A stretch of DNA of 64,000 bases from sequence record MK327929.1; one strand, given 5' to 3'. This document shows positions 9,836 through 63,701 of the stretch, piece by piece; the first letter of the stretch is position 1, and the number at the start of each line of letters is the position of its first letter. This stretch comes from Escherichia phage D5505. Below the pieces are notes generated by a model. It did no database searches. It worked only from the letters and a program-made list of their open reading frames with translations, and had not been told where the DNA came from. The translations under genes and the position numbers were made by a program.

Positions 9836-9851
9836 GGGACCTTTCGGTCCC
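9836..9851. terminator. bidirectional terminator between gene 24 (+) and rnlB (-)
   Basis: GGGACC-TTTC-GGTCCC stem-loop flanked by A/T runs on both strands. Confidence 0.65.
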
Positions 9852-9858
9852 TTTTTAT

Positions 9859-10863
9859 TTAACTTACCAATTCAATCCAAGCCGGACGAAGTACATCTTG
9901 TACCATTTTAACTAATTCCTTTTTAACCAAAGAAGGATTATCTGCTTGAGTTAGAGTAATACCTTCACGAGAAGTTTCTTCCAAAATATCTTGAACAGTT
10001 AGTCCCATCACCTTTCCAAAATCCTTCGGACCAATTTCACCAATTTTAGAAATAACGTTATTTACTCGGTTCAGTGTAACGTAGCAAGCTAAAATTCCCA
10101 CCAATTTGTTATCAGCTTCTGATAGTTCAACTTTAGCTTTAATAGGCTTATCAGACTTTTTCTTTTCACTAAATTTGGAATTCTTGCATTTGATGGCTAC
10201 ACGATTTCCATTATGAAGCCAAGAAGGATAACAAGGTTTCAATACATATCCTTCAGCGGTAAATACTTCGCCTTTGGCTTCAGCTTTCCAAACACATTTG
10301 TTAGCGTCAACTAATCCAGCATGGTCTACTGTAAAATTATAATCTTGGACGACAGAATCTAAATCATTTGGCAATTTAATAAGTTCTTCAAATTTACCAC
10401 GACCTAAAAGTGGAGCCATTTTAAATTTAAATGTATTACAGAATGATTCCATCATATAATCATCGACATAAGTTACATCACCACTTTCTGTAGTGACAAT
10501 AATGTCAAATACATAAAAATCTTTATCGCCATAATCGACATTCTTCTGAATGCCAGGTCCAGCGAATTCGCCAAAGACTTGATAAGATACAACCGCTGAG
10601 GTTTCCATAATATCTTGTACTGCTTTAATAGAATCTTCGTAATTCTTTAGAATAATTTCATACCCAAAGAAATCTTCAGCAGGAAGAATCGGTCCAGTAC
10701 GTTTAGCGCAAGTTACTTTATCACGCTCAATAATCAATGAGAAATTTGTGCCGTGAATCTTTTCACGAGCTACCCACTCCCCACCAGTCAATCCCAAGCT
10801 ATAAAGTTTTTCAATAAATTTAGAGTTGTAATGATTTTCAAGACTGCTATACTTTTTAAACAT
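9859..10863 (-). CDS. rnlB: RNA ligase 2 (RnlB)
   Basis: 334-aa ORF with nucleotidyltransferase motif I KIHGTN; matches T4 Rnl2 length and position. Confidence 0.85.
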
Positions 10864-19532: not shown

Positions 19533-21301
19533 AAAAGCCACAAGAAATGCAAACGATGCGTAGAAAAGTTATTTCAGATAATAAACCAACACAGGAAGCG
19601 GCTAAATCCGCTTCTAATACTTTATCTGGTCTTAATGACATTTCTACAAAATTAGATGATGCTCAAGCTGCCTCTGAATTAATAGCTCAGACTGTTGAAG
19701 AAAAATCAAATGAAATAGTTGGAGCAATTGATAACGTTGAAAGCGCAGTAAGTGATACTACTGCCGGTTCTGAGTTAATTGCCGAGACTGTTGAAATTGG
19801 CAATAATATCAATAAAGAAATAGGCGAATCACTCGGAAGCAAATTAGATAAATTAACGAGTTTATTAGAACAAAAAATTCAAACAGCTGGAATTCAACAG
19901 ACTGGAACGAGTTTAGCAGTAGTAGAAAATGCTATTCCTGTTAAAGTCGTCGAGGATGATACAGCTGAATCTGTGGGTCCTTTATTACCGGCTTCTGAAG
20001 CAGTTAATAATGATCCTGATGCTGATTTTTTCCCTACTCCTCAGCCAATTGAACCAAAACAAGAGTCTCCAGAAGAGAAGCAAAAAAGAGACGCATTTAA
20101 CTTAAAATTATCTCAAGCTTTAGATAAATTAACAAAGACAGTTGATTTCGGATTTAAGAAATCTATTTCAATTACTGATAAAATATCTAGCATGCTATTT
20201 AAGTATACCGTCAGTGCTGCTATTGAAGCTGCTAAAATGGTTGCATTGATAATGGCTGTTGTTATTGGAATAGACCTGCTGATGGTTCATTTTAAATACT
20301 GGTCAGATAAATTTTCAAAAGCCTGGGATTTATTTAGCACTGATTTTAAAACTTTCTCAAGCGAAACAGGAACTTGGGGCCTTTTATTACAAAGCATCTT
20401 TGAATCTATTGATGAAATTAAAAAGTTCTGGGAAGCTGGAGATTGGGGCGGATTAACAGTAGCTATTGTTGAAGGGCTTGGAAGTGTTCTTTATAATTTA
20501 GGAGAGCTTATTCAATTAGGTATGGCTAAATTATCTGCAGCAATTCTTCGAGTCATTCCTGGCATGAAGGATACTGCTGATGAAGTAGAAGGAAGAGCAT
20601 TAGAAAATTTCCAAAATTCTACTGGAGCATCTCTTAATAAAGAAGACCAAGAAAAAGTAGCAAATTATCAAGATAAACGAATGAATGATGATCTTGGCCC
20701 AATAGCAAAAGGATTAGACAAAATTGCGAACTGGAAAACTCGTGCATCTAACTGGATTCGTGGTGTAGATAATAAAGAAGCATTGACTACTGACGAAGAA
20801 CGTGCAGCAGAAGAAGAAAAATTAAAACAACTTTCACCGGAAGAAAGAAAAAATGCTTTAATGAAAGCTAATGAAGCTCGTGCTGCGATGATTCGTTTTG
20901 AAAAATACGCTGATTCAGCTGATATGAGCAAAGACTCGACAGTTAAATCAATTGAAGCTGCTCATGAAGACCTTAAAAAACGAATGAATGATCCGGATTT
21001 AAATAATTCACCAGCAGTTAAAAAAGAACTTGCTTCTAGATTTGCTAAAATTGATGCCACTTATCAAGAGCTCAAGAAAAATCAACCTGAAGCAAAACCT
21101 GAAACTTCTGCTAAATCACCAGAAGCAAAACAGGTCCAGGTGATTGAAAAGAACAAAGCACAACAAGCTCCTGTTCAACAAGCATCTCCTTCAATCAATA
21201 ATACTAATAATGTTATTAAGAAAAATACTGTCGTTCATAATATGACACCTGTCACAAGCACAACTGCTCCTGGTGTATTTGGTGCGACGGGAGTTAATTA
21301 A
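19529..21301 (+). CDS. 29: baseplate hub / tail length determinator gp29
   Basis: 590-aa ORF, T4 gp29 length; synteny. Confidence 0.88.
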   Translation: MKKPQEMQTMRRKVISDNKPTQEAAKSASNTLSGLNDISTKLDDAQAASELIAQTVEEKSNEIVGAIDNVESAVSDTTAGSELIAETVEIGNNINKEIGESLGSKLDKLTSLLEQKIQTAGIQQTGTSLAVVENAIPVKVVEDDTAESVGPLLPASEAVNNDPDADFFPTPQPIEPKQESPEEKQKRDAFNLKLSQALDKLTKTVDFGFKKSISITDKISSMLFKYTVSAAIEAAKMVALIMAVVIGIDLLMVHFKYWSDKFSKAWDLFSTDFKTFSSETGTWGLLLQSIFESIDEIKKFWEAGDWGGLTVAIVEGLGSVLYNLGELIQLGMAKLSAAILRVIPGMKDTADEVEGRALENFQNSTGASLNKEDQEKVANYQDKRMNDDLGPIAKGLDKIANWKTRASNWIRGVDNKEALTTDEERAAEEEKLKQLSPEERKNALMKANEARAAMIRFEKYADSADMSKDSTVKSIEAAHEDLKKRMNDPDLNNSPAVKKELASRFAKIDATYQELKKNQPEAKPETSAKSPEAKQVQVIEKNKAQQAPVQQASPSINNTNNVIKKNTVVHNMTPVTSTTAPGVFGATGVN

Positions 21302-23369: not shown

Positions 23370-23373
23370 CAAT

Positions 23374-23391
23374 GGGGACCTTTCGGTCCCC
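23374..23391. terminator. bidirectional terminator between gene 54 (+) and alt.-3-like gene (-)
   Basis: GGGGACC-TTTC-GGTCCCC stem-loop, A/T-rich both sides. Confidence 0.65.
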
Positions 23392-23397
23392 ATATTT

Positions 23398-23688
23398 TTA
23401 TTTACGGAATGAAATGAAAGCAGCAACTGAAGCAACTAAACTGTCTTCAATATAAACTTCAATTTTTACCGGAGCTTCTGACTCAAATTTACCTGTTACT
23501 ACACCCTGAAAAATACTTTCAGTCTGTTCTGGCTTTGAAAAATTTTCAGAAGGAAAAATTCCGAACTTTTTATCTGTTCCAAAAATTTTGATAAATTCAT
23601 CGTAAACTGCTTCATTAAAAGCATTATCAGCAGGAATAACGCCTTCAACTACAAGTTCTTGACCTAAAAAGCGCAAAGAAGATTTCAT
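23398..23688 (-). CDS. hypothetical protein (alt-downstream, alt.-3-like)
   Basis: 96-aa ORF with GAGGAA SD supplied by the 54-bp cassette. Confidence 0.55.
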   Translation of the reverse strand: MKSSLRFLGQELVVEGVIPADNAFNEAVYDEFIKIFGTDKKFGIFPSENFSKPEQTESIFQGVVTGKFESEAPVKIEVYIEDSLVASVAAFISFRK

Positions 23689-23695
23689 TTTGTGT

Positions 23696-23749
23696 TCCTC
23701 ATGTTATGTCAGTAAGACTACTATAACACAACACGAGGGACTTGTAAAC
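23696..23749 (-). promoter_or_regulatory. early promoter + RBS cassette, copy 1 (GTTTAC -35, TATAGT -10, GAGGA SD)
   Basis: 54 bp identical to 39620-39673; -35 hexamer abuts stop of upstream alt-like gene. Confidence 0.7.
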
Positions 23750-25806
23750 TACATCTTGAACTTTTTAGACATTCCGTTGATGTTAACCAAAGAAGCTAAG
23801 ATTTGAGAAACTTCGTTTTCCTCTTCTTTTGATTCTTCTACAAGGAATTGATTAAATCCAGCCATTGGACGAACTTCACCAGTTTCCATCAAATGATCGC
23901 CATCATATACTGATTCTTCTAATTGCTCAGAAGGAGGAACGATTGTACCTTCGATTAGATACTTGTTATAAGCAGTTTCTTTCATAAAGTAAGTACTTAC
24001 TTTATTAATCTTCAGTAAAATTCCACGCGGTAGAATAACTTCAGCTTCTGATGGAAATCCTGATAAATGACCCGGAACGATAACTTTGATTCGCTCAGCT
24101 CCTTTAATTACCATACCCACGCTAGTTTCAGCATCTTCATTAGCATATGTAGAATGACTACCCATATGCATCAAATCTTCTGCATCAACGGAACCTTCTC
24201 CTTCACCAGAAAATACTGCACCGGAATCATCTAGAGCCATATAGTTTTTACCATGCTCGCCGAAGATATTTGGTTTAAGCGATGTAGATACGAAGTTCTT
24301 GAAATAGAACATTTTGTTTTCAATGTTATGACGCAAAGTTTTAAAGGTAACTTCTTGTCCGCGATAAAGCGTAGTTCCTGGAGGAAGAACTGAACCTTTA
24401 GCGAATGCAGAATCCAACGTCTCGATGTGCTTAATAGCTCGTTCCATATATTCTTCACGGGTAGAATCTGGTTTACCCAAAAGGAACGAGTTCATTTCAA
24501 CATATGAATCTGCACAATAATCTTCAATTACATCAGATTCGGCCTGAGTCAGTCCTTTTGGAGTTACTTCAGTGCTTGCGTATTCATATGCCTGGGCAGC
24601 AGATTCATTAATCAATTTATAAATGCCATTCATGACAAATTGAATAATAGCTGTCTTTTCATCTGGCGTAGCTTTAGAACCTTTAACTAAATCATTAATA
24701 ATTTTCTTAATAACATCAAAGCTATTAGAAATATTAATGTCAGCAAGATCGCTTAAAATTTTATCAGTTTTATAATCAAAGAATTCTTTATTCTTTAAAT
24801 ATTCTTGAGAACCTTGATATGTTATATCGCTCTGCAACTTGATAGATGGATCACGTAAACGTGCATGGGCCAATGCAATATGATTTCGGAAGCTTTCTAG
24901 TTCATAATCGCTAGATTTAAAACGAGAAGCACTTCTCATACCACCGATAGCTCCTTTGCTGAAGTTTGAACCAATCTGGATAACGCCAGAGTTCATTGGT
25001 CCTTCTGCTTTATATACCGGAACTTTAGATTCAAACTCTTGATATTTCTTGGCAGCGAAGCTATCACCCTGTAGCGAAGCATCGACAGTAGAATATTGAG
25101 CTTGTGCTGCTAATCGACGACTAATTTTAGTTTTTTGAATAACAGCTTGATCCGTGCGCTTATCATTTTCTAAAGCAATAGAAGCAGCAACAGCGACAGC
25201 TTTAGGAACAGCATTACCTGTTTTAACATCTACATAAACATCACCGACCTTCGATTCAACTTTTGTGAATAACTCAGTTGAAATAGGAGGTACACCTGGA
25301 ATGTCTTCTAAATTGGCATTTTTACGGTAAACCATAATATATGCATACTTTTTATCATAGTCCCAGATTTCCTTTAAAAGAACATATCGACCTGCTCCTT
25401 TAGTACGTACTAAACGGTCAGCAATAACTTGCATTTGACGAGCAGCGCCATTTGTTTTACTCTTTAGTACGCGGAATAAGCATGCATCAATTTTATACTG
25501 TTTCATTGTTTGAAGAGCAGTATCAAAAACAGCGTTAATGACGCCAATTGGATTTCCACCCAAGTTTCTAAGTTTAACCAGTGATAATTTCTCGTTGACA
25601 CCTATCATTACGATATGCATCATTTTATCGCCCGGCTTAACGTTTTTATTTGTATCACCTCCAGAGGTGTATGTACAAAATCTAAATCCAGGAAGCACGC
25701 TTTCTTCGCCGGCTTGAATAGCAAAAATTTGAGGTATTTTATGCTTAGGATTTAAGTTAACAACCGGCGCCGAAGCGCCGTCAAATAATTCTGTAATAAG
25801 TTCCAT
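23749..25806 (-). CDS. Alt-like ADP-ribosyltransferase, paralogue 2
   Basis: 685-aa ORF; N-terminal half near-collinear with the adjacent 683-aa ORF; C-terminal R (LYRGQ), STS (FVSTSL), ExE (SEAEV) ART-type motifs. Confidence 0.75.
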   Translation of the reverse strand: MELITELFDGASAPVVNLNPKHKIPQIFAIQAGEESVLPGFRFCTYTSGGDTNKNVKPGDKMMHIVMIGVNEKLSLVKLRNLGGNPIGVINAVFDTALQTMKQYKIDACLFRVLKSKTNGAARQMQVIADRLVRTKGAGRYVLLKEIWDYDKKYAYIMVYRKNANLEDIPGVPPISTELFTKVESKVGDVYVDVKTGNAVPKAVAVAASIALENDKRTDQAVIQKTKISRRLAAQAQYSTVDASLQGDSFAAKKYQEFESKVPVYKAEGPMNSGVIQIGSNFSKGAIGGMRSASRFKSSDYELESFRNHIALAHARLRDPSIKLQSDITYQGSQEYLKNKEFFDYKTDKILSDLADINISNSFDVIKKIINDLVKGSKATPDEKTAIIQFVMNGIYKLINESAAQAYEYASTEVTPKGLTQAESDVIEDYCADSYVEMNSFLLGKPDSTREEYMERAIKHIETLDSAFAKGSVLPPGTTLYRGQEVTFKTLRHNIENKMFYFKNFVSTSLKPNIFGEHGKNYMALDDSGAVFSGEGEGSVDAEDLMHMGSHSTYANEDAETSVGMVIKGAERIKVIVPGHLSGFPSEAEVILPRGILLKINKVSTYFMKETAYNKYLIEGTIVPPSEQLEESVYDGDHLMETGEVRPMAGFNQFLVEESKEEENEVSQILASLVNINGMSKKFKM

Positions 25807-25809
25807 GAT

Positions 25810-27861
25810 TTATCCTTGAACGAACTTGTAAGGCATGTTTGCAATATCTATGCAAGACGCAATAATTCCAAGAGATGATTCTACTTTCTGTTTAACATTT
25901 GATGAAACAAATGATGCAAAGTCAACTCTATCTTCTATATCACCTGTCATTGTAACCAATTCACCAGTTTCCATTAAATGGTCTCCGTCATAGATTACCG
26001 ATTCGGTGAGTTCTTCTGTGGTCATAACTTCAGCTTGAATAAGCTTGTTGTTAGTTTTAACTGTTCCATCATTGTAAGATGCATCGGTTATTTTATTAAC
26101 TTTGACCATTAATCCACGTGGCAAAATGACTTCCATTTCATTTGAAGGTGCTAAACTTCCACCGGGTAAAACAACATTGACCTTATCAGCCCCAGTAATA
26201 ACCCATCCAATTCCAACTAAATTATCGCTAGAATTTACTAGTCCTTCATCAGTTTTATCAATAGAAACACTTAGACGCTTTTCGTCTGGTAAAACACCTA
26301 CAGATGAATCAGTCATCCAAGTACCAAAAATATTTGGATATAATGATGTTGACACAAAGTTTCTAAAATAAAAAACTCGATTTTTTACCATTGCTTCATA
26401 TATTGAAGGTAACATTCGTTGTGAACGATACAAAGTAATACCTTTTGGTAATCGTTCACCATTTTTAAAGGCTGAATCTAAATTATCAATAGCTTTTTCT
26501 ATGTCAGATGCTGTCAAAATACTTGTACGCTCATCTGGATTATATAATCCCAAAAGAGCATTATTTATATCTACATATCCTGAACCTACGTATTCACGAA
26601 TTCCGCGTTTTTGCGCCGGTGTGTATTTAGATGAATCTTTATTTTCGACTATAGGATGTAATGACCATCCAGCTGTAAGAGCATATCCACGTAATTCTCT
26701 TCGAATAATCTTTGTTTTTATTGCATTCCAAGAATTTTGTACTAACTCATTTGCAGCATCTTGATTTAAATGCGAATGTTTGTTAATATTTCTTTCAAAC
26801 CAAGCACCTTTATATTTTTCTAAAGTATCATCGACGATAGAAGCAATAGTTTCTAAAGTTTTTATTGAAGTAATAGATTCTTTTCGTAATCTTTCTAAAG
26901 CTTTATTTTTTATTTCTGTATTAACATCAGATTCTTTATCTTCAGGAATTATAGAAGCTTCTCTGAATGCCATTCCAGCTGTAACACTATTAAGAGCATT
27001 CTCTAATGCAAATCCTGAAGTAGAAATAACAGTTAATTCGTTAGCATCGGAAATTAAAGGCGCATCAGCGGGTTTATTTAATTCTGCTGCTGAAGCCTCA
27101 AATTTTTGAAACATCGGTGTTTCAAATCTAGAAGATTCCAATGATTGACTTTGCGCAATTGCTCTACGGGAAATTTTAACTTTAACGATTACAGCTTGGT
27201 CAGAACGTTTATCATTTTCTTGTGCAATAGATGCTGCAATTGCCTCATTTTTAGTTACTTGAGCTCCAGTATCTTTATTGATATAAACATCACCGACCTT
27301 CGATTCAACTTTAGTAAAGAGCTCGGTACTAATTTCTGGAACTCCTGGAATGTCTTCTAGTGATACATTTTTGCGATGTATAAGAATATATGCATACTTT
27401 TTATCATAATCCCAGAGTTCCTTAAGAAGGACGTATCTGCCACCTGAACGACTACGGATAAGTCTATCAGCAATAACTTGAATTTGTCGAGCTTGACCAG
27501 CGGTTTTAGACTTAAGAATACGGAGCATACAAGCATCAATTTTATATTGACGCATTGTTTGCATTGCAACAGTAAAAACTGAATTGATATAATTAATTGG
27601 GCTTGGCCCAAGACCTTTCAATTTAGCAATTGAACCTTTAGCGGTTAATGTAAAAGGAACAATATGCATCATTTTATCGCCCATTTTTAAATCGCGATTA
27701 GTATCACCTCCAGATGTATAGGTACATAAACGAAAGCCTGGCTGTTCAATTGCATCATCAACGTGAACTGAAAAAATTTGCGGTATTTTCTTCTTTGGAT
27801 TTAAGTTTGTAATCGGAAGAGTAGTATCTTCGTCAAATAATTCTGTAATGAGTTCCATCAT
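25810..27861 (-). CDS. alt: Alt ADP-ribosyltransferase (virion-packaged, modifies host RNA polymerase)
   Basis: 683-aa ORF (T4 Alt ~682 aa) adjacent to gene 30; R (LYRSQ), STS, ExE (NEMEV) motifs. Confidence 0.8.
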   Translation of the reverse strand: MMELITELFDEDTTLPITNLNPKKKIPQIFSVHVDDAIEQPGFRLCTYTSGGDTNRDLKMGDKMMHIVPFTLTAKGSIAKLKGLGPSPINYINSVFTVAMQTMRQYKIDACMLRILKSKTAGQARQIQVIADRLIRSRSGGRYVLLKELWDYDKKYAYILIHRKNVSLEDIPGVPEISTELFTKVESKVGDVYINKDTGAQVTKNEAIAASIAQENDKRSDQAVIVKVKISRRAIAQSQSLESSRFETPMFQKFEASAAELNKPADAPLISDANELTVISTSGFALENALNSVTAGMAFREASIIPEDKESDVNTEIKNKALERLRKESITSIKTLETIASIVDDTLEKYKGAWFERNINKHSHLNQDAANELVQNSWNAIKTKIIRRELRGYALTAGWSLHPIVENKDSSKYTPAQKRGIREYVGSGYVDINNALLGLYNPDERTSILTASDIEKAIDNLDSAFKNGERLPKGITLYRSQRMLPSIYEAMVKNRVFYFRNFVSTSLYPNIFGTWMTDSSVGVLPDEKRLSVSIDKTDEGLVNSSDNLVGIGWVITGADKVNVVLPGGSLAPSNEMEVILPRGLMVKVNKITDASYNDGTVKTNNKLIQAEVMTTEELTESVIYDGDHLMETGELVTMTGDIEDRVDFASFVSSNVKQKVESSLGIIASCIDIANMPYKFVQG

Positions 27862-27895
27862 ATCCTCTCTAGTGTTTATTCTATTTATAAAATTA

Positions 27896-32604: not shown

Positions 32605-32690
32605 TTTATTCTCCTTTGTTTGTGTAAGATAATACTATCACAAAGGAACCATACTGTAAACAACTTTATGCAATCTTTGGAAAATAAAAA

Positions 32691-38768: not shown

Positions 38769-39118
38769 TTAGAAAGGTCCTGGATGTCTTCTGCGAACTT
38801 GTTGAAGGAGTTGTTGATTTGTTTTTCAACCAATCCTGGCTTACGAGCCACCACATCCGCCTTCTTTGCATCTTTGCGGAGTTTTTCATTTTCACGCTCA
38901 ATAGCAGCAATCGCCTCACGATTTTTATTATTCATCGCATCAATATAATTATACTGAATTCGCAAATTATTTAATGCTAAGGCGTTTTCATTGGCCGTTT
39001 TTGTAATTTCTACAACAGACGTTTCTAATCTTTCAATTTTATTTTTTAAAATTAAAGAAGTTCCGCCTAATGCAATTACAATTAATAGCAAACCTGCTGT
39101 CGTATTACTTAATTGCAT
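38765..39118 (-). CDS. i-spanin (inner-membrane, PseT.3-like)
   Basis: 117-aa ORF; N-terminal TM segment AGLLLIVIALGGTSLIL followed by charged helical region. Confidence 0.7.
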   Translation of the reverse strand: MQLSNTTAGLLLIVIALGGTSLILKNKIERLETSVVEITKTANENALALNNLRIQYNYIDAMNNKNREAIAAIERENEKLRKDAKKADVVARKPGLVEKQINNSFNKFAEDIQDLSK

Positions 39119-39615
39119 AAAGTTTTAATAACCTCTATAATATCGTCTTGAGAAAGACCGTTAATTAAAATATGATGTTCAGCCGGAGATTTAGAAATTT
39201 TAAAGCATGCCTCAACATCTTCTGCCATATCCGATGCGCTACGATTTGGATTACTAATTCCAAGACGATGTTTTCCCGTTAAAGGATTAACGATGATATA
39301 GCATTTACAGTTGTTAATATGAACATTAGGTTGAGTCTGATTAATGAACACATCGCAATCATATTTCGCAAGCTGATTTTCTAAAAAGACTTTCATCTCC
39401 TCAACCGCATCAGGAAGCATATCACGGGCTTGCTCAAGACGACGATTTCGATATTCTTTAATGGTCGTTTTCCGCTTGACTTGCTTAGCTAAATCTTTCT
39501 TAAGATCGGTGATATATCCAACTCGACGATTTCCTTTAAATACAGAAATCCCATCTGTAGTATCACCGTATGCTTCAACGACCATTTCAGTAGTAATAAG
39601 CTGCAAATCCATCAT
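39109..39615 (-). CDS. alc: Alc-like protein (blocks transcription of cytosine-containing DNA)
   Basis: 168-aa ORF immediately downstream of rnlA, as T4 alc (~167 aa). Confidence 0.6.
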   Translation of the reverse strand: MMDLQLITTEMVVEAYGDTTDGISVFKGNRRVGYITDLKKDLAKQVKRKTTIKEYRNRRLEQARDMLPDAVEEMKVFLENQLAKYDCDVFINQTQPNVHINNCKCYIIVNPLTGKHRLGISNPNRSASDMAEDVEACFKISKSPAEHHILINGLSQDDIIEVIKTLCN

Positions 39616-39619
39616 AAAG

Positions 39620-39673
39620 TCCTCATGTTATGTCAGTAAGACTACTATAACACAACACGAGGGACTTGTAAAC
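39620..39673 (-). promoter_or_regulatory. early promoter + RBS cassette, copy 2
   Basis: 54 bp identical to 23696-23749; -35 GTTTAC sits 3 nt after rnlA stop. Confidence 0.7.
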
Positions 39674-39676
39674 AGC

Positions 39677-41264
<1,588 letters not shown>

Positions 41265-53044: not shown

Positions 53045-56000
53045 ATGGCCGAGATTAAAAGAAAGTTCAGAGCAGAAGATGGTCTGGACGCAGGTGGCGA
53101 TAAAATAATCAACGTAGCTTTAGCTGACCGTACCGTAGGAACTGACGGTGTTAACGTTGATTACTTAATTCAAGAAAACACAGTTCAGCAATATGATCCA
53201 ACTCGTGGATATTTAAAAGATTTTGTAATCATTTATAATAATCGTTTTTGGGCAGCAACGGATAATATTCCAAAACCTGCTGGAAATTTTAATAGAATTC
53301 GTTGGAAAGCATTACGTACTGATGCCGTATATACAACCGTATCATCTGGACCATATCAATTAAAATCCGGAGAAGCAATTTCAGTAGATACATCAGTTGG
53401 CAATGACATTGAGTTTACTTTACCACCTTCTCCGCTTGATGGAGAAACCGTAATAATTCAAGATATCGGTGGAAAACCTGGCATAAATCAGGTTAAAATA
53501 AATTCTTCAAATCAGAGTATTGTCAATTTTAGAGGTGAACAGGTACGTTCAGTTTTAATGACTCATCCAAAGTCACAGATGATATTCATTTTTAATAATC
53601 GTTTGTGGCAAATGTATGTTGCTGATTATAGCAGAGAAGCTGCGATTGTTACTCCATCGACTGCGTATCAAGCACAATCTAATGATTTTATCGTACGTAG
53701 ATTTACTTCTGCTGCACCAATTAATGTTAAACTTCCGAGATTTGCTAATCATGGCGATATTATTAATTTCGTTGATTTAGATAAACTGAATCCACTTTAT
53801 CATACAATTGTTACTACATACGATGAAACGACTTCAGTACAAGAAGTTGGAACTCATTCCATTGAAGGCCGTACATCGATTGACGGTTTCTTGATGTTTG
53901 ACGATAATGAGAAATTGTGGAGATTGTTTGACGGGGATAGTAAAGCACGTTTACGCATTATAACAACTAATTCAAATATTCGTCCAAATGAAGAAGTCAT
54001 GGTATTTGGCGCGAATAATGGAACAACCCAAACAATTGAACTTCAGCTTCCGACTGATATTTCTGTTGGTGATACTGTTAAAATTTCCATGAATTACATG
54101 AGAAAAGGACAAACAGTTAAAATCAAAGCTGCTGGTGAAGATAAAATTGCTTCTTCAGTTCAATTGCTGCAATTCCCAAAACGTTCAGAATATCCGCCTG
54201 AAGCTGAATGGGTAACAGTTCAAGAATTAGTTTTTAACGGTGAAACTATTTATGTTCCAGTTTTACAACTTGCTTATATAGAAGATTCTGATGGAAAATA
54301 CTGGGTTGTACAGCAAAACGTTCCAACTGTAGAAAGAGTAGACTCTTTAAATGCTTCTACTAGAGCAAGATTAGGCGTAATTGCTTTAGCTACGCAAGCT
54401 CAAGCAAATGCTGATTTAGAAAATTCTCCACAAAAAGAATTGGCAATTACTCCAGAAACGTTAGCTAATCGTACTGCTACAGAAACTCGCAGAGGTATCG
54501 CAAGAATAGCAACTACTGCTCAAGTAAACTGCTACAGAAACTCGCAGAGGTATCGCAAGAATAGCAACTACTGCTCAAGTAAATCAGAACACTACATTCT
54601 CTTTTGCTGATGACCTTATCATCACTCCTAAAAAGCTGAATGAAAGAACTGCTACAGAAACTCGCAGAGGTGTTGCTGAAATTGCTACGCAGCAGGAAAC
54701 TAATACAGGTATCGATGATACTACAATCATCACTCCTAAAAAGCTTCAAGCTCGTCAAGGTTCTGAAACATTATCGGGTATTGTAACTTTTGTATCTACC
54801 GCAGGAGCTACTCCAGCCTCTAGTCGTGAATTAAATGGTACAAATGTTTATAATAAAAACACTAATAATTTAGTTGTTTCACCTAAAGCTTTGGATCAGT
54901 ATAAAGCTACTCCAACGCAACAAGGCGCAGTAATTTTAGCAGTTGAAAGTGAAGTAATTGCTGGACAAAGCCAAGAAGGATGGGCAAATGCGGTTGTAAC
55001 GCCAGAAACGTTACATAAAAAGACATCAACTGATGCAAGAATTGGTTTAATTGAAATTGCTACACAAAGTGAAGTTAATACAGGAACTGATTATACTCGT
55101 GCAGTCACTCCTAAAACTTTAAATGACCGTAGAGCAACTGAAAGTTTAAGTGGTATAGCTGAAATTGCTACACAGGTTGAATTCGACGCAGGCGTCGACG
55201 ATACTCGTATCTCTACACCATTAAAAATTAAAACCAGATTTAATAATACTGATCGTACTTCTGTTGTTGCTCTATCTGGATTAGTTGAATCAGGAACTCT
55301 CTGGGACCATTATACCCTTAATATTCTTGAAGCAAATGAGACACAGCGTGGTACACTTCGTGTAGCTACACAAGTTGAAGCTGCTGCAGGAACATTAGAT
55401 AATGTTTTAATAACTCCTAAAAAGCTTTTAGGTACTAAATCTACCGAATCGCAAGAAGGTGTTATTAAAGTTGCAACTCAGTCTGAAACTGTGACTGGAA
55501 CGTCAGCAAATACTGCTGTATCTCCAAAAAATTTAAAATGGATTGTGCAGAGTGAACCAACTTGGGCAGCAACTACTCTGATAAGAGGGTTTGTTAAAAC
55601 TTCTTCTGGTTCATTAACGTTTGTTGGTAATGATACGGTAGGTTCAACACAGCCATTAGAATCATATGAGAAAAATGGTTATGCAGTATCACCATATGAA
55701 TTAAATCGCGTATTAGCAAATTATTTGCCATTAAAAGCAAAAGCTGTAGATAGTAATTTATTAGATGGTCTAGATTCGCTCCAGTTCATTCGTAGGGACA
55801 TTGCACAAACAGTTAATGGTTCACTAACCTTAACCCAACAAACGAATCTGGGTGCCCCTCTTGTATCATCTAGTACTGCTACATTCGGTGGATCAGTTTC
55901 AGCAAATAGTACATTAACTATTTCTAATACTGGAACGGCAACTCGTCTGATTTTTGAGAAAGGACCTCAAACTGGAACAAACCCGGCTCAAACGATGACA

Positions 56001-56969
56001 GTCAGAGTGTGGGGAAATCAATTTAGCGGGGAATCAGACACAACACGTTCTACCGTATTTGAAGTTAGTGATGAAACGTCTAGTCATTTTTATTCTCAGC
56101 GTAATAAAGCTGGAAATATAACATTTAATATCAACGGTACAGTAACACCGATAAATGTTAATGCTTCAGGAACATTGAATGCAAATGGTGTAGCAACATT
56201 TGGTAATTCAGTCACTGCAACTGGTGAAATTATTTCTCGAAGCGCAAATGCTTTCCGTGCTATTAGCGGAAATTATGGTTTCATTGTTCGCAATGACGGG
56301 TCAGTAACGAATTTTATGCTTACTGCATCGGGTGATCAGACTGGCGGATTTAATGGATTGCGTCCTTTAGCTATTAATAATGCATCTGGCCAAGTAACGA
56401 TTGGTGAAAGCTTAATCATTGCCAAAGGTGCTACTATAAGTTCGGGTGGTTTGACTGTTAACTCGAGAATTCGTTCTCAGGGCACTAAAACATCTGATTT
56501 ATACACCCGCGCTCCAACATCTGATACTGTAGGATTCTGGTCAATTGATATTAACGATTCAGCCACTTATAACCAGTTCCCGGGTTATTTTAAAATGGTT
56601 GAAAAAACTAATGAAGTGACTGGGCTTCCATACTTAGAACGTGGCGAAGAAGTTAAATCTCCTGGTACATTGACTCAGTTTGGTAACACACTTGATTCGC
56701 TTTACCAAGATTGGATTACTTATCCAACGACCCCAGAAGCACGTACCACTCGCTGGACGCGTACATGGCAGAAAACTAAAAATTCTTGGTCAAGTTTTGT
56801 TCAGGTATTTGATGGAGGTAACCCTCCTCAACCTTCGGATATAGGAGCGATCCCATCTGATAATGGAATAATAGGTAATCTTACTATTCGTGATTTCTTA
56901 CGAATTGGTAATGTTCGCATTATTCCTGACCCAGTGAATAAAACTGTTAAATTTGAATGGGTTGAATAA
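53045..56969 (+). pseudogene. 34: long tail fibre proximal subunit gp34, reading frame interrupted by a 55-bp tandem duplication
   Basis: N-terminal ORF 53045-54610 and frame-shifted ORF 54528/54891-56969; removing one 55-bp copy yields 1289 codons, the T4 gp34 size. Confidence 0.85.
54473..54582 (+). repeat. perfect 55-bp direct tandem duplication (2 copies) inside gene 34
   Basis: 54473-54527 = 54528-54582 (ACTGCTACAGAAACTCGCAGAGGTATCGCAAGAATAGCAACTACTGCTCAAGTAA). Confidence 0.95.
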
Positions 56970-63545: not shown

Positions 63546-63701
63546 CACTCAATTAGTTGACTTTGTTATAATATCATCAGACACTTGATTTGTAAACTGG
63601 TCTGTGTTATTTTCTTCAAAAATTTTTTCTACGAATTCCTTGAACGACTCGCGTTCCTGAGCTACATTATGCTCGATTACCATTTCAAGATTATGACTCA
63701 T
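63546..63701 (-). CDS. hypothetical 51-aa acidic protein (below ORF-track cutoff)
   Basis: Hand-translated MSHNLEMVIEHNVAQERESFKEFVEKIFEENN...; ATG directly follows arn stop. Confidence 0.4.

Follow-up and report, generated by a model that had tools for sequence, protein, structure and literature searches.

The 64,000-nucleotide stretch of Escherichia phage D5505 analyzed here (sequence record MK327929.1, hereafter the window) contains two exact copies of a 54-bp sequence that is probably a strong early promoter combined with the translation-initiation region of the gene that follows, the whole unit being written as a hairpin: locally started transcripts would expose the SD, read-through transcripts would bury it, and the two copies would be kept alike by conversion and selection. 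The feature is real and largely ordinary, the pair being present also in T4 and about 500 relatives. The original prediction, which had read the copies as T4 early promoter and RBS cassettes of the promoter-early stem-loop (PeSL) architecture, was largely right.

The 54-mer, TCCTCATGTTATGTCAGTAAGACTACTATAACACAACACGAGGGACTTGTAAAC, is found at 23696-23749 and at 39620-39673, and both copies read on the minus strand.

23696..23749, minus strand: cassette copy 1, exact 54-mer between the stop of the alt paralogue and alt.-3; cassette position p is window position 23750-p
39620..39673, minus strand: cassette copy 2, exact 54-mer between the stop of rnlA and alc; cassette position p is window position 39674-p

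An exact match search bore out the claim of identical 54-bp cassettes at two loci, and no further match with ≤3 mismatches was found on either strand of the whole window. The repeat is exactly 54 bp long, with flanking bases diverging at once on either side, and the pair was recovered as family D6 in a repeat search of the window. Its chance expectation, as assessed using 100 dinucleotide-preserving shuffles, is zero. The window is from a Tequatrovirus, and its cassette region is 99.9% identical to several T4-like phages. T4 itself (AF158101) has both copies, the alc copy being identical and the alt.-3 copy having one mismatch. A BLASTN comparison with other T4-like genomes, which had been proposed together with the original prediction, extended this to ∼499 Tequatrovirus records with the full cassette (sensitive BLAST), nearly all of them in two places each. 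Because T4 and these ∼499 records have two copies, the repeat is a genus-wide character and not an artefact of assembly, and the concern that it might be unique to one assembly can be set aside. Judging from these comparisons, it is an ancestral, genus-wide trait of Tequatrovirus. Origin of the pair by chance similarity, or as a collapsed or duplicated contig end, was considered and rejected: no supporting point was found, the expectation is zero, and the copies are embedded in unique flanks in the T4 reference and in ∼499 independent genomes, which leaves this explanation with a negligible probability. A scan of IMG/VR using a 29-mer gave seven loci, too few for a population analysis, and 12 GenBank genomes were sampled instead. 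None of the papers in the literature collection searched for cassette sequence strings contained them.

Each copy abuts the stop codon of an upstream gene, one between the alt paralogue and alt.-3 and the other between rnlA and alc, exactly as first described. The neighboring genes and signals are listed below.

23749..25806, minus strand: alt paralogue, full-length, 685 aa; the G of its TAG stop is cassette base 1
23398..23688, minus strand: alt.-3 homologue, 96 aa, served by copy 1 and named by synteny with T4 alt.-3
25810..27861, minus strand: alt, 683 aa, the gene upstream of the alt paralogue
27882..27889, minus strand: T4 late-promoter motif TATAAATA, 20 nt upstream of the alt ATG
23372..23393, no strand assigned: bidirectional intrinsic terminator (terminator scan), ending the alt.-3 unit and gene 54 on the opposite strand
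39677..40801, minus strand: rnlA (RNA ligase 1/gene 63), 374 aa from the ATG at 40801; its TAA lies 3 nt upstream of copy 2
39109..39612, minus strand: alc (inhibitor of host transcription), with a likely start at the second ATG, 39612-39610, as in T4

At both sites the downstream start codon (for alc, the second ATG) is found 7 nt past GAGGA, and both cassettes thus have the intergenic position, between an upstream stop and a downstream SD and start, that is typical of PeSL. The terminator at 23372..23393 is also annotated in DalCa and G28. Two side observations concern this region. The tandem full-length alt genes (23749-25806 and 25810-27861) account for repeat families D1, D9, D10, and D14, with a spacing of ∼2050 nt; most of the Tequatroviruses sampled have both full copies, and in T4 the second has been reduced to the decayed remnants alt.-1 and alt.-2. 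In addition, terminator hairpins at 9836-9882 and 23375-23421 on the plus strand have a common stem, GGGACCTTTCGGTCCC, and 70% identity over 47 nt (family D13), and apparently represent a further regulatory module that recurs.

On the minus strand, the cassette reads G-TTTACA, a 17-nt spacer ending in TGT, TATAGT, and then 19 nt ending in GAGGA. As assessed by a promoter scan, the best-scoring minus-strand match at each site is TTTACA-17-TGnTATAGT, with 10/12 positions matching and the TG present.

23743..23748, minus strand: −35 box TTTACA of copy 1 (GTTTAC when the preceding G is included), from the promoter scan
23720..23725, minus strand: −10 box TATAGT of copy 1, preceded by TGT (extended −10), from the promoter scan and the Lutter annotation
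39667..39672, minus strand: −35 box TTTACA of copy 2, from the promoter scan
39644..39649, minus strand: −10 box TATAGT of copy 2, with TGn, from the promoter scan

The match is 10/12 against the Escherichia coli consensus and 11/12 against the PST/T4-type PeSL consensus, TTTACW-N17-TAYWAT (Arbiol et al. 2010, PMC2839356; Comeau et al. 2014, PMC4122927). The GenBank record of phage Lutter, the work of one independent annotator, has a promoter feature on exactly the same 30 bases. The predicted promoter and SD cassettes on the minus strand therefore agree with both the scan and the Lutter annotation, and the promoter, first described as GTTTAC-17/18-TATAGT, is resolved to TTTACA-17-TATAGT with TGn. 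These sequence features support the view that both copies are good promoters of the sigma-70/T4-early type combined with an SD. Like the "UP/−35/TGn/−10" early promoters of T4 (Hinton 2010, PMC2988021), the cassette has a GTTTAC-type −35, a 17-nt spacer, a TGn, and a near-consensus −10; it is unlike them in that the −10 is TATAGT rather than TATAAT, and in that 54 bp including the 5' UTR have been duplicated verbatim. As regards the AT-rich tract that PeSL cassettes have upstream of the −35, the 25 nt preceding the cassette are 72% AT at site 1 and 64% AT at site 2, and consist of coding sequence outside the repeat. From the position of the −10 (cassette positions 25-30), we infer that transcription starts ∼7 nt farther on at A37, i.e. 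at window positions 23713 (copy 1) and 39637 (copy 2). No T4 transcription-start dataset was found in a literature search.

In sense RNA, the cassette is predicted to fold into a long hairpin in which positions 12-25 pair with 40-53 (14 bp, including three G.U pairs) and, beyond a 2-nt bulge, positions 28-31 pair with 36-39 (4 bp) around a 4-nt loop. The computed free energy of this fold, −22 kcal/mol (z = −5.4), was equaled by 0 of 200 shuffles.

23697..23738, minus strand: hairpin of copy 1 (cassette positions 12-53), from computed folds; its 3' arm ends in the SD GAGG at 23697-23700
39621..39662, minus strand: hairpin of copy 2, from computed folds; SD GAGG at 39621-39624

The −10 box occupies the top of the 5' arm and part of the inner stem, the loop comes next, and the SD GAGG (positions 50-53) closes the 3' arm. 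A stem was thus correctly foreseen, as was its enclosure of the −10, and its size was underestimated (a 9-bp stem with one G.U, as opposed to 14+4 bp with three). The predicted start, A37, falls inside the 3' half of the hairpin, downstream of the entire 5' arm (12-31), and transcripts of two kinds would consequently differ in structure. When the cassette was folded in a 334-nt read-through context, the core pairs had a probability of 1.0 and the SD was unpaired with a probability of 0.001 (site 1) or 0.008 (site 2), an occlusion that would be stronger than originally claimed. In 98-nt transcripts starting at A37, the corresponding probabilities were 0.14 at site 1, where there is a weak 5-bp alternative pairing, and 0.68 at site 2; the folds of short A37-initiated transcripts show no stable structure over the leader.

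The fold is markedly strand-biased, with −22.0 kcal/mol for the sense RNA versus −12.8 kcal/mol for the antisense RNA, which folds less well because the G.U pairs turn into C.A mismatches. This computed bias favors a role of the sense RNA over one of a DNA cruciform. Substitutions among genomes affect 8 of the 18 unpaired positions and 7 of the 36 paired ones. All three G.U pairs are Watson-Crick in some genome and C15U retains pairing, and five types of substitution break pairs (C13A, G16U, G18A, G29A, and G40U). A covariation test on 16 distinct variants, with 97.2% of cells paired, found 0 compensatory double changes; the variants being 96% identical, this test is without power and shuffles are uninformative. 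Sequence comparison is therefore only suggestive of the helix. Rfam searches of both sites gave sub-threshold noise only and no RNA family. Neither hairpin was called as an intrinsic terminator by the terminator scan, and the sequences that follow them, ACACAAAAUG and CUUUAUGAUG, have no U-run.

Nine minus-strand promoters of the form GTTTAC-N17/18-TAnnnT are present in the window, the twin cassettes included, the other seven starting at 63597, 52999, 49699, 48985, 36353, 32661, and 32269. All nine have a hairpin, spanning or adjoining the −10, whose sense RNA folds more stably than the antisense RNA, and most have the layout described for PeSL by Arbiol et al., an inverted repeat with its 5' arm in the spacer and its 3' arm past the −10. 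Four of them, namely the two cassettes and the promoters at 32661 and 49699, have a paired SD in the computed read-through fold, and the hairpin of the twin cassette is the strongest among the early promoters of the window. Pairwise identity between these early promoters is 100% for the twin pair, 69% for the next pair, and 48% at the median. In the Mosigvirus JS09, both orthologous positions have GTTTAC early promoters abutting stops, which differ in sequence from the cassette; the alt.-3 site has AACATGAGGA in common with the T4 cassette. We found no significant SD-occluding hairpin at the JS09 sites (z −0.4 and +0.5). Deep conservation of SD occlusion at both loci was rejected on the grounds that the JS09 sites fold no better than shuffles, and occlusion of the SD would thus not be a deep requirement for alc or alt.-3. 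JS09 has, at a third and non-orthologous locus between rI and mobD.2a (19990-20050), a cassette whose core GTTGTGTTATAGTAGTC.TTACT is common to the T4 cassette; there, a CUCCUC in the spacer pairs with a GAGGAG SD, and an intrinsic terminator precedes it. By itself this core match is weak (E = 0.3), and it is partly the general early-promoter consensus.

At site 1, the TATAAATA motif upstream of alt, which is also found in T4, is preceded by a GC-rich hairpin, AAAGGCCTTCGGGCCTTT, and the DalCa and G28 records have a terminator annotated between alt.1 and alt. Because TATAAATA stands before alt and this terminator lies between alt.1 and alt, late transcripts would be expected to run from alt through the alt paralogue and the cassette into alt.-3, ending at the terminator at 23372-23393. 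At site 2, no late-promoter motif was found next to rnlA. At ∼40825-40860 on the minus strand, just upstream of the rnlA SD, the sequence TGCTTCC resembles a Mot box and has TACTAT (with TG) 13 nt farther on; it was not relied on as a middle promoter of rnlA, since rnlA is missing from a published list of about 58 T4 middle promoters. We propose that read-through at site 2 comes from upstream early or middle units, and temporal gating would be weaker here because there is no late or identified middle promoter just upstream of rnlA.

The published expression classes of T4 genes fit a promoter at the position of the cassette. In time-course omics data (PMC9697503 supplements), alt.-3 and alc have early RNA and early protein, alt has late protein and "middle" RNA, an RNA class in which the late baseplate gene 11 is also found, the RNA of alt.-1 and alt.-2 is likewise "middle", and rnlA is early at the RNA level and late at the protein level. 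To account for the switch in RNA class at site 1, there must be a promoter between alt.-2 and alt.-3, where the cassette is located. The early-protein classes could result from the shut-off of early promoters and mRNA decay alone.

Taken together, these observations suggest the following mechanism. The 5' arm lies in the promoter spacer, and the 3' arm would be the first ∼17 nt of the local transcript, ending in the SD. RNA polymerase starting at A37 would make an mRNA without the 5' arm and with a free SD, from which alc and alt.-3 may be translated directly after infection. Transcripts arriving from upstream, presumably late ones from the TATAAATA of alt through alt and its paralogue at site 1, and early or middle read-through via rnlA at site 2, would contain both arms. 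Such RNA would fold the 18-bp hairpin just past the upstream stop and bury the SD, so that translation of the downstream gene would be tied to its own early promoter. For the upstream mRNA, the hairpin may in addition stabilize or mark the 3' end.

A precedent exists in T4 for a promoter inside an SD-sequestering hairpin. The RBS of e, soc, 49, and I-TevI is sequestered by hairpins with an internal late promoter, TATAAATA; long read-through transcripts bury the SD, whereas the shorter internal transcript is without the 5' arm and translatable (Uzan & Miller 2010, PMC3014915). The cassette is like these hairpins in that computed folds place its SD in a helix on the long transcript, and in that the transcript of its promoter, by the inferred start, lacks the 5' arm. 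It is unlike them in that the internal promoter of e, soc, 49, and I-TevI is late and the block acts on early or middle read-through, whereas the cassette has an early sigma-70 promoter, with no TATAAATA in it, and its block would act on later or upstream read-through. The temporal logic would therefore be reversed, which would make the arrangement a mirror image of that of e, soc, 49, and I-TevI.

Both sites were compared in 14 genomes or contigs. The two copies are identical in 5 of the 14 (the window, one IMG/VR contig, G28, PP01, and MLP2) and differ by 1-6 bases in the others. A derived pair of alleles, A29 and A32, is found at both sites in G28 and PP01, and another, A32 and A34, at both sites in MLP2; other variants are private to one site, C27 to alc and T11, T15, and A16 to alt.-3. 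The distance across sites is 2.43 within a genome versus 3.06 between genomes (permutation p = 0.007). Because derived double substitutions recur at both sites and the within-genome distance is lower, the sequences indicate occasional ectopic gene conversion between the copies. Alleles common to both sites could in principle reflect parallel selection, e.g. G29A gives the consensus TATAAT, and the −10 is indeed TATAAT in some genomes and TATAGT here. The promoters themselves are apparently old, because the orthologous positions in JS09 already have early promoters, and the identical 54-mer would be a Tequatrovirus innovation copied from site to site. In this scenario, the common ancestor with Mosigvirus would already have had early promoters at both loci, one version would have overwritten the other in Tequatrovirus, and occasional ectopic conversion together with selection would have kept the copies alike since.

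Two further explanations were weighed. The 2010 description of PeSL (PMC2839356) gives the layout as stop codon, −35/−10, stem-loop, SD, and start codon, with the stem-loop usually located between the two boxes or overlapping with the −10 and acting as an effective terminator; in RB49, such a stem-loop cut expression of a downstream reporter as strongly as the rrnB T1 terminator. Taken strictly, this would make the twin cassette a mobile promoter-terminator unit, with recombination between copies shuffling, deleting, or amplifying modules and the stem-loop terminating upstream transcription. The architecture fits, since the cassette has a sigma-70-like, T4-type early promoter, a stable 18-bp hairpin enclosing the −10, and an SD at its 3' end, and it recurs within the genome at two loci; the related core at JS09 rI-mobD.2a, weak and partly generic as it is, and the exchange of sequence between copies point the same way. 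The terminator part of the PeSL match is not supported by the sequence, in which the hairpin has no U-tract and is not terminator-like; the stem is also much longer than in PeSL and reaches the SD. Nor is the mobility part supported: JS09 already has promoters at both positions, and the flanking gene order is conserved across the sampled Tequatrovirus genomes and JS09. Furthermore, the cassettes flank conserved, core-like genes (alc, rnlA, and alt), not ORFans in hyperplastic regions.

The two perfect repeats had also been viewed as a substrate for deleting or amplifying the intervening ∼16 kb. Two chimeric junctions were built as BLAST queries (rnlA end-cassette-alt.-3, and alt paralogue end-cassette-alc), and neither was found at ≥80% coverage in any of 499 Tequatrovirus records. 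This speaks against that view in fixed genomes, and the indels, gene replacements, and mini-circles that recombination between PeSL cassettes produces have no counterpart here: no indel or crossover at the cassettes was seen in the 499 genomes, and only non-crossover exchange was detected. Between the copies lie gene 30 (DNA ligase), gene 31, cd, and pseT. In T4, the first two of these are essential, and a 16-kb duplication exceeds the T4 terminal redundancy, so fixed crossover products are not expected; transient ones are possible in lysates. Phage vB_EcoM-G28 has a third cassette copy, resulting from a 351-bp tandem duplication (2135-2539 of the analyzed sequence) that spans the 3' end of rnlA, the cassette, and the first ∼190 nt of alc, and leaves an additional, truncated alc ORF; the duplication was joined within coding sequence, indicating illegitimate recombination and not a cassette-mediated event. 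With this third copy also counting against it, we consider the strict PeSL explanation unlikely.

The other explanation takes the hairpin to be mainly an element of the 3' end of the upstream genes, protecting from exonucleases or being processed (e.g. by RNase III), with occlusion of the SD incidental. It draws on the fact that the hairpin starts only 11-14 nt past the upstream stops and is very stable in computed sense RNA, and on the terminator-like strength of the RB49 stem-loop (PMC2839356). Weighing against it, there is no U-run and no Rfam match, in each copy the 3' arm falls precisely on the SD, GAGGA is the very end of the cassette, and the promoters at 32661 and 49699 likewise have a spacer that pairs with the SD. 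As the main function of the hairpin, this is quite improbable; as an additional one, a role in 3' stabilization or processing is possible and compatible with an early promoter set in an SD-burying hairpin, the two not being exclusive.

Elsewhere in the window, gene 34 (long tail fibre proximal subunit) has an exact 55-nt tandem duplication at 54473-54582 on the plus strand, within ORF 53045..54610. Because 55 is not a multiple of 3, the frame ends at 54610, and the remainder of the gene is a separate ORF, 54891..56969. The best-matching phage records are without this duplication, a 321-nt query mapping on 266 nt in two pieces. Either the duplication arose from an error of sequencing or assembly, or this essential tail-fibre gene is truly frameshifted.

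For those who annotate T4-like genomes, two copies of the cassette are to be expected and should not be taken for a mis-assembly. In practice, the cassette would represent a compact, self-insulating part consisting of a strong early promoter and an RBS. In the twin copies, a highly recombinogenic phage provides a clear natural example of a regulatory element evolving in concert along a very short stretch of homology. Singer et al. are said to have put, in 1982, the minimum homology for T4 recombination close to ∼54 bp. A more ambitious reading, which we advance tentatively and regard as possible but doubtful, is that alc, for shut-off of host transcription, and alt.-3 form a two-gene early regulon with one promoter, one 17-nt leader, and one self-insulating hairpin serving as an "early-only" translational gate, opposite to the late-only gate known from T4, so that neither gene would be translated from later read-through; the pair would be maintained identical across the genus by ectopic conversion over ∼54 bp. 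If the favored model of an early promoter within an SD-burying hairpin holds, T4 would use the design of a promoter inside an RBS hairpin in both temporal directions, and many "PeSL" stem-loops may be translational insulators, not terminators, uncoupling a gene from upstream transcription.
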